Origin: Candidatus Eremiobacteria bacterium
GTDB taxonomy: Bacteria > Vulcanimicrobiota > Vulcanimicrobiia > Vulcanimicrobiales > Vulcanimicrobiaceae
Assembly: GCA_963737065.1 (NCBI GenBank)
Contig: CAVTRC010000001.1
Coordinates: 32,001 to 96,000, forward strand
Length of the DNA stretch: 64,000 nucleotides
Direction of reading: 5' to 3'
Part shown: positions 31,950-42,190 of the stretch, one piece after another
How positions within the stretch are numbered: position 1 is the first letter of the stretch
Layout of the letters: every line of letters begins with the position of its first letter
Notes under the pieces: generated by a model
The model's database searches: none
Told to the model about the DNA's origin: nothing
Seen by the model: the letters and a program-made list of their open reading frames with translations, nothing else
Translations under genes and position numbers: made by a program

Positions 31950-34609
31950 ACGCAATCTTGCGGCGCTGCTGGACGCCGTCAGAACACTGGAACCCACGCT
32001 TTCCCGGGAGACGATTACCGCGGCGATCCGCAGCGCGACGGACCCCGCTATGCTGGGCAAGCTCGTTCGTTCGATCGCGCCGAATCCACGCGCCCTGCTC
32101 GATGCAGCCGCCGCGGCGATGCCGGCACATAGCCGGCTCGTTTGAAGAACTCCTCAAGCGCGGCGCGCGACACATCGTGCGCCCCACGTGCGGCCTGTGC
32201 GGAGAGGCGGCGCTCTTAGAATACAAATTTCAAGACCGACGGATCTGCCGAGAATGCTACACGAAGAACCTCAAAGCGGAATGCTGCATCTGTAAACGGA
32301 TGAAACAAATCTGCTCGCGCATCGATGGAAAGCCAAGGTGTGCTGCCTGTCACGTTCGCGATCCGCAAAACCACGAAATCTGCAGCATATGCAAGGCCCT
32401 CGCCTATCCACGGGTGCGCCCCAACGGCCGACCAATCTGTCAGCTCTGTTACGAAGCGCCGAAGCACGTCTGCACAAACTGCGGAAAGCATGCCCCCGCG
32501 CAGACGACGGAACCGCGAGTACTCTGCAAAGAGTGCTACGAAGTGATCGTCCTGGGAAAACCAGTGCGGGTCCTTCCACGCGCCAAGCACCGACCGATGC
32601 GCCAGCGCGTCTGTGCAACCTGCGGTGAAAGACGGCTCTGTACCAACTTCCTTGGTGATCAGCCGAAATGCGCCGATTGCGCAGGGCGCCCGAAGCTAGA
32701 ATGCGTTTCGTGCCGCAGGGAACGCCCGGTGCAGGCCATTTGGGAGATCGGTCCAGTGTGTAACACTTGCTATGACGGCAAGCGCGGTATGTGCAACCGC
32801 TGCGATCATGAAGGATTGGTTATTAAGTATCGCCACAACGCAATTTGTCACGAATGCGCCGGAAAGCCGAGTCAGTCGAAATGCGGCGGCTGTGGCCATC
32901 GTGAAGGGCTTTACGAACGCGGGCGCTGTGCTCGCTGTGTGCTCGACCGAAAGTTGACCGACTTGCTGCGGGACACGAGTGGGGAGTTCGCCAGCGAGCT
33001 GCTACCCCTAAAGAACCTACTTCTGGAACACCCGAGTCCTGAGTCGGTGCTCGGCTGGCTACGAAAGAGTCCAAAAGCGACTCACGTACTTGGAGCACTC
33101 GCCCGACGCGAATTGGAGGCGTCACATGTCGCATTCGACAATCTCGGCGGCGCGCCGTCCATTAGCTTCTTGCGATCTTTGTTGATGTCGAGCGCCGTTC
33201 TGCCGGAGCAGTCGCGTAACTTTTCGCTTCTGCTGCCATGGCTCGAACGTTTTCTCTCACGCTGCCCCGCGGCCCATCGACCCTTACTTTCAGCATTTGC
33301 GCAATGGCATGTCTTTCGACGACTACGCGACAAGGCGCGCTTTGGTGATATCACGGAGAGCTCCAACCGATGGGCCCGTGCGCGTTTGCGTTGCGCCGCC
33401 GTGTTCCTAAAATTTCTAGATAGCAAAGGTCATACCCTGAACACCTGTCAACAGGCCTTGCTTGATGAATGGCTAGCAGAGGGCTCGACGTCAGCGTACC
33501 TCGTGCGTGACTTCGTCTGCTGGGCATATCGCCGAAATCTGATGCGGCAACACGTTGTTCCGCTACGCAAAGTTAAGAAACCGGTCGACCCGATCGATGC
33601 GGATGCGCGGTGGGCGATCATTCGTCGCCTCATCACGGACGACACCATCCCCGTGGGTTTGCGCGTAGCCGGAGCATTAAACTTACTCTTTGGCCAGCAT
33701 GTGAGCAGAATCGTGCGCCTCACCGATGCCCATGTTATAAACATTGATGAAGAAACGTGCGTGGTGCTAGGCCGCGAACCAACTCCGCTTCCCCAACCCT
33801 TTGCTCGGCTGATCTTGGACCTCGTTAAAAGGCGGCGCAGTCAAAAGTGGAGTTGACCCGCTTCCGTGGAGACTTTCAATCTTACAGAGAAAGGTCTCCA
33901 TATGGCAAAGCGCCCCACCTATCCGCCGGAATTCCGGCATAGGATCCTCGAGCTGGTTCGCTCCGGTCGCAGCGTGAATTCGATTGCCGCCGAGTTCCAA
34001 GTCGCGCGGCAATCGATCGTGAACTGGCTGAAGCAAGACGACGTTGATACGGGCCGCCGCGACGGCGGTTTAACAACGGACGAACGCAAAGAACTTGCGG
34101 CACTGCGCCGTGAAAATAAGCGCTTAAAACTCGAAGCGGAAATCCTGTCAAAAGCCGCGGCCTGGTTCGCTCGGGAAACGCACGCGGTTCCGAGCAAATC
34201 TTCGGATTCATAAAGGCGTACCAGGCCAACTATACGATTACGATGCTGTGTCATGTGCTCGACGTTTCCCCGAGCGGATACTACGCGTGGTGCAACCGAT
34301 CGCCGTCGAAGCGCCGCCAAGACGACATCGTTCTCGGCGATCAGATCGATGCGTTCTATCGGAAGTCGTATGGTATTTACGGCCGTCCGCGCTTGCATGC
34401 GGATCTTCGCGAAGCCGGCATTCGGATCTCCGGAAAGCGCCTTGCGCGGTTGATGCGCGAACGCGGAATTGTCGGCGTTTCTCGGAGGAAATCCACAGTC
34501 ACGACCATACGCGATCGGGATTCGCGTCCGGCGCCTGATCTCGTTGAGCGCAATTTCCAAGCCGATGGGCCTGACCAGCTTTGGGTCGCTGACATTACGT
34601 TGTATCTTG

Positions 34610-34790
34610 GACCGACGCGGCGAACAACCGTCGCGAGGTGGGGATAGCACGGATATTACGTGAGGCAGCAACAGCCTGAGATGTAGATGTCGCACCCCAC
34701 TGCATTTTCAGCGCCGCAGGAGATCGGACGATAGCAAAGACGTTGCTCATCGAGCGAAGAGTCTGGATTTACAAGGCTGATCCGCGGGTG
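34610..34790 (+). ncRNA. bridge RNA (target- and donor-binding loops); ends approximate
   Basis: ATATTACGT 34653-61 and ATGTAG 34681-86 match the target; ACGATAGC 34728-35 and TACAAG 34770-75 match the donor junction. Confidence 0.85.
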
Positions 34791-34821
34791 GCGCGATTTC
34801 GATTTGAAATGTGGAGGCGCT

Positions 34822-35805
34822 GTGAAATTCATCGGGATTGATGTCTCTCGTGATAAGCTCGACTGCGCGGTAGTCGACGACTGTGGAACCGTTATTCAAC
34901 GATCGCGAGCATTTAAGAATAGCGCTGATGGCGTCGATGCGCTCCTGAAGTGGGTCGGAAAAATCGCCAGTAAGGGGCACGCGCGGTTTGTCATCGAGGC
35001 AACGGCAGCCTATCACGAGATGGCCTCACTGCGCCTTGCGAAGACCGGTGAATTCGTCGCAATCGTGAACCCATTTCACGTGCGTTCTTTAGCGCGCGGG
35101 CTAGCCATGCTCAGTAAGAGTGACGCGATTGATGCGCTCGTCCTTGCGCAATATGGGCGTCTTGCAAAGCTGCGCCGATGGGTACCGCCAGCTGCGCAGC
35201 TTGTTGATATTCAGGCTCTTTTGCTGCGGCTCGATGCGATTGAATCAGACCTCTTGCGTGAGCAGAATCGTCGCGAGCAGGCTGCAGCCAGAGAATCCGC
35301 GACGCTTGTGATTGGCTCGATTGACGCGAGTATCAAATTCCTAAAGCGTCAGCGGAAAAGCATCGAATTCGCGATCAGCAAATCGATTGAAACCGCTCCG
35401 GGTATCGCGGATGACGTCGAGCGCTTACGCTCGATCCCCGGCGTGGGCGAAAAGACAGCAAACCGCATGGCGACCATGCTGCGTATGCACGACTTTAAGT
35501 CGGCGCGTGAAGTGGCCGCCTTCTGCGGCCTCGTTCCGGTCGAGCATAAATCCGGAACGAGCGTCTATCGCAAGCCGCGACTCTCGAAGGCCGGCAACCC
35601 AAGAATGCGGGCGGCTCTATACATGGTTGCAGTCGTCGCCATGCGGTTGAACCCCGACGTCAAGGCGCTTTACGATCGACTCGTAGGACGCGGTAAAGCA
35701 AAAATGGCGGCTCTCGGTGCGTGCATGCGTAAGATCGTTCAGATATGTTTCGGCGTACTGAAGTCGGGAAAAACGTACGCCCCGCAGGCTGTTGTTAGAG
35801 CTTGA
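34822..35805 (+). CDS. IS110 DEDD recombinase
   Basis: IGIDVS, IEATA, KSDAIDA, SIPGVG, GLVP...SGTS; GGAGG RBS before GTG. Confidence 0.95.
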   Translation: MKFIGIDVSRDKLDCAVVDDCGTVIQRSRAFKNSADGVDALLKWVGKIASKGHARFVIEATAAYHEMASLRLAKTGEFVAIVNPFHVRSLARGLAMLSKSDAIDALVLAQYGRLAKLRRWVPPAAQLVDIQALLLRLDAIESDLLREQNRREQAAARESATLVIGSIDASIKFLKRQRKSIEFAISKSIETAPGIADDVERLRSIPGVGEKTANRMATMLRMHDFKSAREVAAFCGLVPVEHKSGTSVYRKPRLSKAGNPRMRAALYMVAVVAMRLNPDVKALYDRLVGRGKAKMAALGACMRKIVQICFGVLKSGKTYAPQAVVRA

Positions 35806-36679
35806 CTTCCCAGACGATATCTATATCCCGACCTGGGGTGGATTCGTATACCTCGCAATTGTGCTCGATGCTTACAGTCGTCGAGTCGTCGGCTGGGCAA
35901 CTGCTAATCACTTACGCACCGAACTTGTTCTGCAAGCGCTCAACTCATCAATCTATCGGCGACGGCCGGAAAACGTTATCCATCACTCGGATCAAGGCTG
36001 CCAATACACCTCAATCGCCTTCGGCCTGCGGTGTCGCGAAGCCAAGGTACGCCCGTCGATGGGTTCAGTCGGTGATGCATACGATAACGCGATGTGCGAG
36101 AGCTTCAACGCAACGCTCGAATGCGAACTACTTGCGCGAAGTTCGTTCAAAAGCCAGCGTGAAGCTGAACAAGCGATCTTCGCGTATATCGAGGGTTTCT
36201 ACAACCCGCATCGCCGGCATTCCGCAATCGGGTATCTCTCACCGAACAACTTCGAGCGCCGCATGAGTCATGCCGCTTGATGTCCAAGTCGCATTTCTCC
36301 GCGAAAGCGGGTCAACTCCAAAGCGCCCGAGGTTGGCATCAGGCGAATTCCTTTTGTTTCCGGGAAAGAACTACGGCAAGCCGACGACAACTGATGTGCT
36401 GAGTCATCGGTTGCAAAATATTGGAATCAGCGTACGTGCCGGCCGAAACGCTGCGCTGATGGAGATCGCGGCTAAGCTTCCCGCACCAGTGCTACGGGAT
36501 TTGCTCGGCATCCACATAAATGTGGCGGTAATTTGGAACCGCGCCGCAGGGCACAGCTATGCCAATTATGTCGGCGGTCTGAAGCGACAGAATGCTAAGA
36601 CTTAATCGGACAGTTGGCGAAGGTCGCATCGCATCCTGCCGCGTCACTGAGCGTGACGTCGGCGACGAAGGAGACGATC

Positions 36680-37714
36680 TTGACCACCGAACGCAAAGTC
36701 ATTCGTGCCAAAGTCGGCCTGCTCAACCTTGCAAAGCAGTTGGGGAACGTGCAGCAGGCCTGCAAGATGATGGGGTTTAGTCGCGATAGTTTCTATCGCT
36801 TCCAAGAGCTCTATGAAACCGGCGGTGAGGCCGCGCTCGCGGAAATCTCGCGCCGAAAACCGATCCTGAAGAACCGAATCGATCCAACGATCGAGGATGC
36901 GATCGTGACGCTCGCAATAGAACAGCCGGCGTTCGGCCAAGTGCGCGTCGCCAATGAACTCAAAAAACGTGCAATGACCGTTTCTCCCGCCGGCGTGCGC
37001 TGCGTTTGGCAGCGGCACGATCTTGAGACGATGAAGAAACGATTGAAAGCACTAGAAGCAAAAAGTGCACAGGAAGGTTTGGTTCTGACCGAAGCGCAGC
37101 TCGCAGCACTTGAGAAGGCGCAGAACGAGAAGGACGCGCACGGCGAGTTCGAGAGTGAATGCCCCGGTTATTGCGGCGCACAAGACACGTTCTACGTCGG
37201 CACGCTCAAAGGCGTCGGCCGTGTATATCAGCAGACCTTTGTCGACACGTATAGCAAAGTTGGATTCGCGAAGCTGTACCAGCAAAAGACGCCAATTACT
37301 GCAGCAGATCTGCTCAATGATCGGGTCATTCCATTCTTTGAAGAGCACGATATTCGCGTGAGCCGAATCCTCACTGATCGTGGAACCGAGTACTGCGGAG
37401 ACGTCCAGAAGCATCCTTACGAGTTGTACCTCGCAATCGAAGACATCGATCACACGCGCACCAAGGCAAAGAGCCCCCAAACAAACGGCATCGTTGAACG
37501 CCTTCACAAGACGATGCTTAACGAATTCTACCGCGTGGCATTCCGCAAGAAGATTTACCATACGGTCGACGAGCTGCAAGCCGATCTCGATGCATGGATG
37601 CGCGAGTACAACATAGAACGCACGCATCAAGGGCGCTGGTGTTACGGCAAGACGCCGATGCAGACATTTTTCGACAGCTTGGAACTCGCCAAGGAGAAGC
37701 TATTTGCAGCCTGA
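36680..37714 (+). CDS. IS481-family transposase (element ends not identified)
   Basis: [43 protein letters not shown]. Confidence 0.9.
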
Positions 37715-38114: not shown

Positions 38115-38237
38115 GCAACCGAACCCCGCTCGGTAGATGCACGTGGCTTGCGAAGTCGACGTTGAAAATGGAGGCTTGATACATCCTGTTGTTGACGCCG
38201 GGTGAAAAGTGACCCACTTTGCTAGGGGATCGCCGGT

Positions 38238-40050
<1,813 letters not shown>

Positions 40051-40100
40051 CGCGACCTTGCGTTCGCGTTAGATCAGGTGGAACGGCTTAGTCAACTCTG

Positions 40101-41174
40101 TTAGGCGGCGACTTCAATACTATTCTGACTATTGCGCGCAAGTCGGTCTTGCATCGGTTGTAACCGATAAAACACAACCGTTGCCAGCTGCCGTTTGTGA
40201 GAACGCATCGCAGCTCGATGCGTCTTGCCCTCAGCTCGCTTACGCGCATAATAGAGTTGGCCCGGATGATTGCGCGTGCGGTTTTGGACCAACGCAATAA
40301 CATGGAGTAATCGATTGAGCTGACGATCACCACCGGTGTTGACACGGACGCTCGCGTTGCGACCGCTCGAACACGGAACGGGCGCCGCCCCGGCGCGCAT
40401 CGCGAAGCTCGCGGCATTGCGATACATGCAAAGATTGCCGGCATGTCCAATGATCCCGGCAGCAACGACAATGGAAACGCCTCGAAGCTCCAGCAATTCG
40501 GGCGCAAGGCGCTTAACGAAAGGGCGCAGTTGGCGTTCCAGCTGATTCACTGCAGCATTGAGCCGGCGGATTTCCGAGATCGCCTCGTCGACCTCATCAG
40601 CAAGCGCATCACCGGTATAGCTCTTACCGCGATGACCCGTTAGAAGATCTGCTGCATTCTGCAATGCAATTTCGGTGGTCATGTTCGAGGGCAGCGGTCC
40701 AATCGCCAGCCGCAATGCGGCATCCCGCAGCCGATTTACAGCCTCCGTCCGCTGTCGCACAAGTCGATCGCGGCGATCATAACGTAACCGGACTGCTTCC
40801 TGTTCATCCAGACGTTCGCAACGCCGCAAGCGATCGGATTCGCGCAGAACTGCTTCGGCAATCGCTCGAGCGTCGAGTGGATCGGATTTTCCTCTTCGGC
40901 TTGCGTGTTTGCGGTGACGTTTAGTGAACGAACCTGGAACCTCGTATACGACGGCGTTGCTTTTCAGCAGAGCATCGGCGAAGCCACGTCCGAACGAACC
41001 ACTTCCCTCAAGACCCCATTCAACGGTGCCAAACGACCGTGCTCTTTCGATCGCAGTCGCATACCCTGCGGCGTTCGTTGCAATGGTGATCTCCGAGAGC
41101 GCTTTCCCAACTCCATCAACGAATACGATGGTGTGAGAATCCTTGTGACAATCGACGCCCGCAACGACGCGCAT
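40101..41174 (-). CDS. IS110 DEDD recombinase
   Basis: AGVDCHK, LEGSG, GKSDPLDA, GAAPVPCSSG, GDRQLN; AAGGAG RBS. Confidence 0.95.
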   Translation of the reverse strand: MRVVAGVDCHKDSHTIVFVDGVGKALSEITIATNAAGYATAIERARSFGTVEWGLEGSGSFGRGFADALLKSNAVVYEVPGSFTKRHRKHASRRGKSDPLDARAIAEAVLRESDRLRRCERLDEQEAVRLRYDRRDRLVRQRTEAVNRLRDAALRLAIGPLPSNMTTEIALQNAADLLTGHRGKSYTGDALADEVDEAISEIRRLNAAVNQLERQLRPFVKRLAPELLELRGVSIVVAAGIIGHAGNLCMYRNAASFAMRAGAAPVPCSSGRNASVRVNTGGDRQLNRLLHVIALVQNRTRNHPGQLYYARKRAEGKTHRAAMRSHKRQLATVVFYRLQPMQDRLARNSQNSIEVAA

Positions 41175-41194
41175 GCGTTCTCCTTTTATGCGAG

Positions 41195-41338
41195 GTTACC
41201 GCAGACGTCGGCGATCCCTTATTGAGCATTTGCACTCGGCTTACCAGCCAAAACGCGCTGCGGAAAAGACGCGCCTGCCGGCCATTCCACCCCAAGTCAA
41301 TCCGACTGTCAATTTTGGAGCCAGAGCAGACGCACCCT
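41195..41338 (-). ncRNA. bridge RNA of second IS110; ends approximate
   Basis: minus strand AAAATTGAC and GGGGTGG match the target; TAAGCCG and ATAAGG match the donor junction. Confidence 0.85.
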
Positions 41339-41476
41339 AATCATACATATAAGGGTCAATTTTCAACCGGCGGGGTGGGTCAACTTTACTCCGGCGCTAA
41401 CACTGTCCTTTTCTTAGTTTCGCCGCGATTCGAATTTCGAAAGAGACAGATTGCGCGAATATTGCCATTGTGCAGT

Positions 41477-41700
41477 TGGAGTTGATCGATTATCGTGGAT
41501 AGTTTTTTGATCGGAGCCTACGCAGCATGTTCCCGCTCGAAGTCGATTGGCCAGAGATAGTTGAGTCGCGAGTGCGCACGGTGCGCGTTGTACCACGATT
41601 CAATGAACGTGAAGATCGCTATACGAGCCTCACTCTGCGCTTTGAATCGCCGCCTTGCGAGCAGCTCGGCATTCGAGCGTGGCAAAGAAACTCTCGCACG
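41477..41700 (-). pseudogene. IS3-family orfB 3' remnant with right IR
   Basis: ELLARRRFK.Q.EA..AIF.FIE.WYN.HR.HS similar to 36120-36280; tggagttgatc at 41477. Confidence 0.8.
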
Positions 41701-42190
41701 TCGCAGTACCTTAGGATTCGGCGGACATCGTTTCAACGTTCAAGGATAACACCGCGTGGACGAATATCAGCGCAAACGCCTCGCATGGATTCGCTTTTTG
41801 AGCAGTGGAACGATGCTGGAAAGGTCTGCCTGAAATGCGGAATCTCTCCCCCGACGCTGCGTAAATGTCTGGGAGCACCATAAGGTCCATGGGATCACCA
41901 GCTGTGCCAAGGCATTCGGCCGCTCGAGCAACTCTGGCGTCGTCGATTCCGATAGGGTAACATCGTAACCGGCCACCGCTTCGTCCTCTCGGTTAAGAAG
42001 TTCGTCGTAAAGCAAATGTTCCGAACCGAAACGCTGGCTCCTCGTCTTTACAGCATTTTAAGAGACGTCATCACTGGGCACAGTACGTCGGAATTCGAGC
42101 TAACAATATTGACGTAGAACGACCAGCAGGATTCGACACGGCTTAAACGAGCGATCCTAAATGGCTTCGTAATTCCAGGAGGATCCGTAT

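Follow-up and report, generated by a model that had tools for sequence, protein, structure and literature searches.

Insertion of an IS110-family element into an IS21 terminal repeat

The question raised by a 64,000-nt stretch of contig CAVTRC010000001.1 from a Candidatus Eremiobacteria bacterium (this whole stretch is referred to as the window) is whether an insertion sequence (IS) of the IS110 family, located on its minus strand, was directed by an RNA of its own into the terminal repeat of another mobile element, of the IS21 family. The data presented here indicate that this is very probably an active or recently active IS110-group element, integrated by RNA-guided recombination into L2, the inner repeat at the left end of an IS21 copy. 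The anatomy of the element, a conserved RNA structure in its left end, the covariation of guide segments with the flanks, repeated insertions into IS21 repeats and the occurrence of empty sites were all observed.

With the duplicated CC counted once, the element proper comprises 1,273 bp (41352-40080). The range 40075-41362, under which it was first annotated, also takes in target flank on both sides (left, 10 nt; right, 5 nt). On the minus strand, the left junction consists of AAAATTGAC (41363-41355), CC (41354-41353) and TTATATG from 41352, and the right junction of TAAGCCGTT (40090-40082), CC (40081-40080) and ACCTG (40079-40075). Directly downstream of the element on the same strand lie istA (40050-39025; NCBIfam NF033546, transpos_IS21, 297.5 bits) and istB (39032-38238; Pfam IstB_IS21, 2.3e-88). 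The left terminus of this IS21 copy, TGTTAGCG, was found at 41402, and it is followed by the direct repeats L1 (AAAGTTGACCCACC, from 41387) and L2 (AAAATTGACCC, from 41363, split by the insertion), which are spaced 24 bp apart; the L1 target contains TTGACCCACCCC and the L2 target TTGACCCACCTG. The order istA (HTH plus rve), then istB (AAA+), and ends of two direct repeats are the architecture of the IS21 family, in which the repeats lie about 23 bp apart according to excerpts of PMC10122671.

The uninterrupted form of the site is present in other genomes. IS21 left ends without the insertion read AAAATTGACCCACCTGA in related genomes; the empty site of genome G012 (L096) is AGTAAAATTGACCCACCCCGCCGGTTGAAAATTGACCCACCTGA, including GTTGAAAATTGACCCACCTGA, and close variants were found in G015, G021 and G006. 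In two soil-metagenome contigs the match to the window ends at 41353, beyond which the IS21 sequence goes on with ACCCC... or ACCTGG... These empty sites indicate that the intact L2 is AAAATTGACCCACCTG, with three C, and that two C were duplicated on insertion; they confirm the earlier proposal that the inner IS21 repeat was the target. An alternative boundary one base further out, with the left end starting from CCTTATATG, a two-C target and a canonical left guide, was ruled out, since the empty sites have three C.

The genome (G000) comprises 3.08 Mb in two contigs, C1 and C2, and it contains a second full copy of the element (L002, C1:1245641-1246929) that differs from the window copy at 2 of 1,273 bases. 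Further copies are one 3'-truncated by another IS (on C2), one at a contig edge, one 5'-truncated and one 92% fragment; element copies are at least 99.3% identical. The second full copy interrupts the L2 repeat of another IS21 variant, which shares 86% identity with that of the window over 477 nt, and the 3'-truncated copy (L003) sits in an L1 repeat, with the junction after AGTAAAATTGAC-CC. The left terminus of IS21 has three exact matches in the genome, and the element is present at all three (a fourth match, with 2 mismatches, stands outside this count). The preference for IS21 repeats within this genome is real.

Some of the incomplete copies show additional features. Two of them (L003:2739, G000 C2:575655, and L004:1050, at the start of G000 C1) are cut at about 1,227-1,229 of 1,273 by a sequence starting TGTGTAAACCGAG, which may be a third IS inserted in the 3' end of the element, or the trace of one duplicated event. 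The copy L006 (G000 C1:381875-382491) is a 90-92%-identical, stop-riddled fragment of a second lineage, with the right flank ACCTAGAGATCG, and points to an older invasion.

A conserved two-loop RNA in the left end

The non-coding sequence of the element is unevenly distributed, with 178 nt 5' of the transposase gene and 21 nt 3' of the stop codon. The four guide-like segments reported in the left end by the first-pass annotation were all found by sequence reading on the minus strand: AAAATTGAC (41316-41308), GGGGTGG (41293-41287), TAAGCCG (41243-41237) and ATAAGG (41222-41217). The first two are separated by a 3-bp hairpin, GUC-GGAUU-GAC (41306-41296).

Relatives were gathered by a protein search and a metagenome scan, the latter providing the 80 loci kept of at least 581 confirmed by tblastn; a pattern-based scan of genome contigs gave only two distant loci. 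The left end of the window element could be aligned with those of 19 relatives, whose proteins share 51-65% identity with its own. RNAalifold analysis of these 20 sequences yielded two stem-loops, each with a large internal loop capped by a small hairpin, and compensatory changes were present in 19 of the 26 pairs. Paired cells amounted to 93.3%, versus 77.3% in shuffled alignments (0 of 500 reached the observed value) and 29-51% when the partners were slid by 1-3 columns. The compensatory pairing in the stems beside the guides indicates selection on RNA rather than on DNA sites.

A covariance model of the homologous left ends, which had been suggested as a check, was built (R1), and its match to the left end of the element (Table 1) is the only one at E <= 0.01 across the whole window. 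Among 87 sources, the window included, R1 matched 48 places, all of them in sense orientation and just upstream of a transposase gene. The strong matches (23) are the 20 training sequences together with L036, L002 and L003; weaker ones were obtained in L018, L039 and L010, plus 22 at 19-32 bits in relatives of 33-39% protein identity. On four actinobacterial plasmid IS110 loci, R1 gave one match at E 6.8e-7 (28.1 bits, upstream of a Streptomyces plasmid IS110 transposase gene), one at E 0.058 and none in the other two. No match at E <= 1 was found in Rfam 15 within 39500-42000.

The predicted RNA, described earlier as compact (about 145 nt), is indeed short: if it starts near 41333 and ends with the second stem at 41205 (41199 with the extended stem), it measures about 130-135 nt. 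The last base of the putative promoter's -10 box is 41340, and the 5 nt that separate it from the first stem, beginning at 41334, leave no room for a 5' stem-loop. The 18 left ends that could be located begin 14-21 nt before the start of the RNA model. The target loop is closed by a basal stem (41334-41320 with 41282-41270) and contains the left guide CAAAAUUGAC (41317-41308), the right guide UGGGGUG (41294-41288), the core guide GA (41287-41286) and the handshake bases AU (41285-41284) on either side of the hairpin mentioned above. The donor loop, with a stem formed by 41256-41247 and 41212-41205 and a hairpin at 41233-41226, contains the left guide UAAGCCG (41243-41237) and the right guide AAUAAG (41223-41218) plus GG (41217-41216).

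Guide segments covary with targets and element ends

The earlier proposal of a bridge RNA whose guides match the IS21 repeat and the element's own ends was borne out by the covariation of guides and flanks; a lack of covariation among homologues, named in the first-pass annotation as refuting the proposal, was not what the relatives showed. The 10-nt left target guide (A3 columns 20-29) matched its own left flank at a mean of 7.44/10 positions and the flanks of other elements at 3.36 (n=18; L016 and L017, whose left ends were not locatable, were dropped, and the left end of L029 was corrected by one base). For the right target guide, the mean was 5.0/6 against its own right flank and 2.4 against those of others (n=15). 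Permutation tests gave p <= 5e-5 for each of the two guides. An unvarying GA, placed three bases ahead of the closing stem, is complementary to the terminal TC that was seen in each of the 14 right ends located with confidence, and the handshake dinucleotide is complementary to the two bases preceding this TC in 13 of 15 cases, switching with the right-end type (GG with CC, GT with AC, GA with UC).

In the donor loop, the core guide pairs with the left-junction dinucleotide in 17/18 elements (GG:CC, GU:AC, CU:AG or GA:TC). In the window element, UAAGCCG is the right-end sequence 40090-40084, and AUAAGGG is the reverse complement of the left-junction CCCTTAT. A donor-loop handshake was looked for by eye in the guide table of the relatives, and none with consistent complementarity to the target emerged. 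Both target guides are matched perfectly by L1 of the AAAATTGACCCACCCC type; L2 is a perfect match for the left guide. An alternative left guide located in the hairpin (AUUGACUU, beside the right guide) was rejected as probably inherited, because L017 shares the GUC...UUGAC hairpin but has an unrelated target.

The right-end motif TTGAC(T/A)AAG(C/A)CG.TC is conserved in 14 relatives; a loosened pattern caught spurious sites inside the gene, and the statements on right ends rest on the stricter pattern set. If the ends were joined, they would read TTGACT (40095-40090), 17 nt, TATGAT (41345-41340), just as first annotated, and the predicted circle junction contains AAGCCGTTCCTTATATG. No sigma-70-like site was found upstream of the RNA on its strand in the integrated state; this, together with the split TTGACT/TATGAT, fits the IS110 pattern of circle-driven expression described in excerpts of PMC11208160. 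Joints of right and left ends were not found in three soil-metagenome contig sets with small shares, a result that is silent either way on the circle and on excision.

The transposase belongs to the IS110 group

The 357-aa open reading frame (ORF) contains the Pfam domains DEDD_Tnp_IS110 (PF01548, 3.6e-25) and Transposase_20 (PF02371, 2.4e-11), and it scores 159.5 bits with NCBIfam NF033542, 'IS110 family RNA-guided transposase' (cut-off 140). Residues D8, E56, D98, D101, S270 and G271 are invariant in 39 homologues. E56, D98, D101 and S270-G271 align with E60, D102, D105 and S241-G242 of IS621, D8 being outside the local alignment. At E <= 1e-20 the clade includes 747 proteins among 8,000 scored, the best non-self one being 78% identical.

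The element belongs to the IS110 family, IS110 group (RNA-guided). It combines a DEDD plus Tnp/Ser protein with a two-loop covarying RNA, guides that covary with target and donor, and the long non-coding end 5' of the gene that is typical of this group, R1 matches being found upstream only. The hallmark of the IS1111 group, an RNA 3' of the gene with sub-terminal inverted repeats, is absent, the downstream sequence being limited to the 21 nt mentioned above. Absent too are the narrow IS621-like features, namely a CT core with the core in all four guides, and a 5' stem-loop. Coordinates of the features are collected in Table 1.

Another IS110-family transposase gene is present in the window at 34804-35805 (plus strand, 333 aa), with a second copy at C1:1287165. 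The two proteins are only 21% identical, in agreement with the first description of the element studied here as a second, unrelated IS110. Nothing credible was matched by R1 near this other gene (33500-37000; best E 0.17).

Table 1. Features of the IS110-family element and of its IS21 host in the window
Feature	Coordinates	Strand	Evidence
IS110-family insertion sequence	40080..41352	minus	Junction reading; recurrence at C1:1245641-1246929; contigs diverging past 41353
Transposase/recombinase gene, 357 aa	40101..41174	minus	Pfam, NCBIfam, invariant catalytic residues
Bridge RNA, covariance-model match; basal stem of loop 2 extensible to ~41199	41203..41336	minus	R1, 109.8 bits
Target-binding loop	41270..41334	minus	Structure columns mapped to coordinates; guide-flank matches
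Donor-binding loop	41205..41256	minus	Structure columns mapped to coordinates; matches to the element's own ends
Putative -10 half of junction promoter, TATGAT	41340..41345	minus	Sequence reading
Right end: putative -35 half TTGACT (40095-40090), left-donor sequence AAGCCGT, terminal TC (40082-40081), C40080	40080..40095	minus	Sequence reading
Target left half (IS21 repeat L2), AAAATTGAC + CC	41353..41363	minus	Junction; uninterrupted homologous IS21 ends
Target right half (IS21 repeat L2), ACCTG, then istA leader	40075..40079	minus	Junction; uninterrupted homologous IS21 ends
Host IS21-family element, ~1.94 kb without insert	38190..41402	minus	NCBIfam, Pfam, repeats; 38190 boundary approximate

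Register of the guides and identity of the core

The first-pass annotation gave the core as CC and noted that the left guides stop before the core, unlike those of IS621. As a rule of the clade this did not hold in the relatives: the last two bases of the left target guide are the left-junction dinucleotide in 12 of 18 of them, and in the canonical register this guide matches at least 7/10 positions in 14 of 20 sequences, which indicates that coverage of the core by this guide is the normal arrangement, as it is in IS621. In the window element the match is shifted by one base. In the family register, the donor is GCCGT-TC-CTTATATG (core TC, 40082-40081) and the target is AAAATTGA-CC-CACCTG, with the first two C of the run as core. 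The duplicated CC is the same sequence as the core in the family register, read one base later, and the window element alone fits both registers. A CC core is excluded by L021 and L025, in which the left junction reads AC and the right end TC. The proposed CC thus describes the duplicated bases well; the family register, by contrast, places TC in the donor core and the first two C in the target core.

The first core position is A at the left junction in 8 of 18 elements (that of the window among the 18) and T at the right end; the reverse was never found. Where the left junction reads AC and the right end TC, the GA of the right target guide pairs with the latter and the GU of the right donor guide with the former (A3 columns 28-29, 52-53 and 127-128). 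Each 3' guide complements the first core base of its partner, and only the second base is shared (C, or G in the L032 group). The complementarity of a 3' guide to the core of the partner looks like an extra handshake base.

It is unlikely, though worth stating, that the clade has two real rules here rather than noise, a one-base shift of the left guide and an A/T difference at the first core position, and that the element is a natural IS21 silencer. If so, a single base (C) would be shared in the crossover, the first core position would be a third handshake base and the left half-site would be readable with a one-base bulge, while the silencing would come from the element's occupation of every recognisable IS21 left end in the genome.

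Alternative explanations

Several observations weigh against RNA-guided integration as set out above. The left target guide of the window element matches only 5/10 positions in the canonical register and 9/10 when displaced by one base; IS621-type geometry leaves this displacement unaccounted for, and a similar one is seen in L023, where 3/10 rises to 7/10. On the right half of L2 (CCACCTG), GGGGTGG forms five Watson-Crick pairs, one G-T pair and one mismatch, being perfect only against CCACCCC of the L1 type. The single-sequence fold of the left end is no better than that of shuffled sequences (z = 0.29); the stem extension CCGCAG/CUGCGG does appear in it. The covariation counts include groups of closely related elements (L015/L031; L032/L033/L038), and independence is therefore overstated by the permutation p-values. 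Similar repeats at the right end of IS21, AAAATTGACCCACT and AATTTTGACCCACC (~38205 and ~38240), are unoccupied, and the same is true of both complete IS21 copies. The left junction of L002 has four C (GACCCC joined to TTATATG) versus three in the window copy; the extra C is either a variant target used in a second register or a homopolymer-length error of the long-read assembly. The right flank of this copy (G000 C1:~1246929) starts with GCCTG instead of ACCTG. Finally, the circle, the expression of the RNA, the dependence on it, the inactivation of IS21 and the activity of the element are all inferred.

The more far-reaching proposal of the first-pass annotation was a distinct bridge clade with a non-canonical geometry, in which the left guides end before the core, specialised in parasitising IS21 ends. 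In its favour, AAAAUUGAC stops short of the exchange point, by one base in the family register and by two in the duplication register, UAAGCCG ends before the terminal TC, and L023 is displaced in the same way; the protein is also remote from that of IS621 (E 2.4e-6) and the RNA has no 5' stem-loop. Against these features stand the coverage of the core by the left target guide in 12/18 relatives, with the canonical register as the best one in most of them, and the right guides, which take in the core as in IS621. The flank survey that had been suggested gave no IS21 genes in the flanks of 15 relatives (Pfam scan of flank ORFs of at least 85 aa, which showed neither an IstB nor an IS21 pattern). 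In seven of the 15 (L016, L020, L023, L026, L032, L040 and L045) the flanks contained transposase domains from other families, of IS3, ISL3 or IS4/5 type, and R1 reaches actinobacterial IS110 elements, among them that of the Streptomyces plasmid. A separate clade of this kind is improbable. The mechanism known for IS110 elements is unchanged, and the first reading was right in kind and over-generalised.

The flanks of some relatives deserve separate mention. The left junctions of L032 (560-600), L033 and L038 read ATCCTAAAAAAAG joined to TACAT, with left target guides that read GUAAAAAAAG, and the flank ORF that ends at the junction of L032 encodes an IS3-type HTH_Tnp_1 protein. The site resembles the A7G frameshift region found in the IS3 family, which would be a further case of an IS aimed at an IS. 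In L040 (1582-1961) the transposase gene of the relative is interrupted, with IS3-family ORFs (HTH_Tnp_1, HTH_21, rve, rve_3) further on within the locus. The Streptomyces plasmid IS110 element (L112:1846-2387, NZ_CP107767.1) has directly after it a gene annotated as an IS3 family transposase.

The insertions could also have arisen without any site preference, through one chance insertion into an IS21 that was then copied by duplication or movement of the IS21::IS110 composite. The right flanks of L002 and L005 are nearly identical and could represent one event, and a survey of 60 related genomes revealed the element in just one, at 58% identity, so that the sample of events comes from a single genome. 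However, the IS110 copies differ at only 2 of 1,273 bases while their IS21 hosts are 86% identical, one copy is located in L1 rather than in L2, and the segments of the RNA loops match the site; a single copied insertion is highly improbable. The least credible explanation is that the protein chooses the target and the left-end segments are transposase-binding DNA sites instead of RNA guides. This explanation draws on the fact that the element is known here from its DNA sequence alone, and it is contradicted by the stems beside the segments, which keep their pairing through compensatory changes, by a strandedness (5' side same-sense, 3' side antisense) like that established for IS621 in excerpts of PMC11208160, and by the NCBIfam assignment of the protein to an RNA-guided transposase family.

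Proposed mechanism

RNA-guided integration by a bridge RNA would proceed as follows. The 178-nt left end would encode a bridge RNA of about 135 nt, formed by two stem-loops with large internal loops and without a 5' stem-loop. The 5' side of loop 1 (AAAAUUGAC), of the same sense as the left half of the target, would pair with the bottom strand, and its 3' side (UGGGGUG-GA-AU) is antisense to the right half of the target, to the terminal TC and to the two preceding bases (handshake). UAAGCCG and AUAAGGG in loop 2 would address the right and left ends of the element likewise. By analogy with IS621, the element may be excised as a circle, in which the joined ends would create the promoter TTGACT-17-TATGAT and drive synthesis of both the RNA and the transposase. 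The DEDD/Ser recombinase and the RNA would then recombine the circle junction with IS21 repeats of the TTGACCCACC type at the C run. According to excerpts of PMC10122671, IstA requires two complete direct repeats per end in vitro; the split L2 therefore probably disables this IS21 copy. The IS21 end could in this way serve as a harmless landing site present in multiple copies.

Comparison with known systems

In what appears to be a clear-cut case from nature, the bridge RNA of one IS is programmed against the repeats to which the transposase of another IS binds, and IS21 ends would join REP sequences, attC sites and Tn21 ends as landing sites of the IS110 family. Full-text literature searches turned up no paper in which an IS110 element targets IS21 ends; the predicted RNAs and targets of this clade may already be listed in the supplementary tables of PMC11208160. 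Those who engineer bridge recombinases could be interested in the compact RNA, which at about 135 nt dispenses with a 5' stem-loop, and in the C-type core. Two departures from the IS621 rules can be put to the test, namely the register shift of one base and the occurrence of A versus T at the first core position.

Among the closest known systems is IS621 of E. coli (excerpts of PMC11208160, PMC11208158 and PMC13626964). In IS621 the 3' guide side pairs with the top strand, each of the four pairings takes in the core, and the 3' guides are succeeded by two handshake bases (PMC11208160, PMC11208158); excision uses the same RNA (PMC13626964). Both elements have a DEDD RuvC-like domain and a Tnp domain with Ser-Gly, an RNA in the left end upstream of the gene, and two pseudo-symmetric stem-loops with internal loops. 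They also share 5' sides in the same sense and 3' sides antisense to target and donor, a handshake dinucleotide after the right target guide, a -35/-10 promoter (putative in the window element) split across the right and left ends, and a dinucleotide flanking both ends. They differ in the protein, which matches that of IS621 only with E 2.4e-6 over two local stretches, and in the RNA, of about 135 nt without a 5' stem-loop, whereas that of IS621 has 177 nt with a 5' stem-loop at nt 1-33 (PMC11208158). The terminal dinucleotide is TC with an invariant C here and CT with a near-invariant T in IS621, the left target guide of the window element is displaced by one base, and in the relatives with AC at the left junction target and donor differ at the first core position (A against T).

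The IS1111-group elements that insert in Tn3 repeats, compared by description only, are also DEDD-transposase ISs that land specifically in the terminal repeats of another transposable element; they have the RNA downstream of the gene, sub-terminal inverted repeats and a 38-bp target of the Tn3 family. With the seekRNA of ISEc21, likewise compared by its description in excerpts of PMC11187229, the element shares an upstream non-coding region and a short programmable RNA with segments that match the target and the ends, the reported RNA of ISEc21 being of 74 nt, of which 58 nt are sufficient. The best annotated relatives in the plasmid collection are actinobacterial IS110-group elements, such as that encoding WP_330294170.1 on the Streptomyces griseorubiginosus plasmid NZ_CP107767.1; their identity is low (34-38%), and among the four plasmid loci R1 is clear upstream of WP_330294170.1 only.

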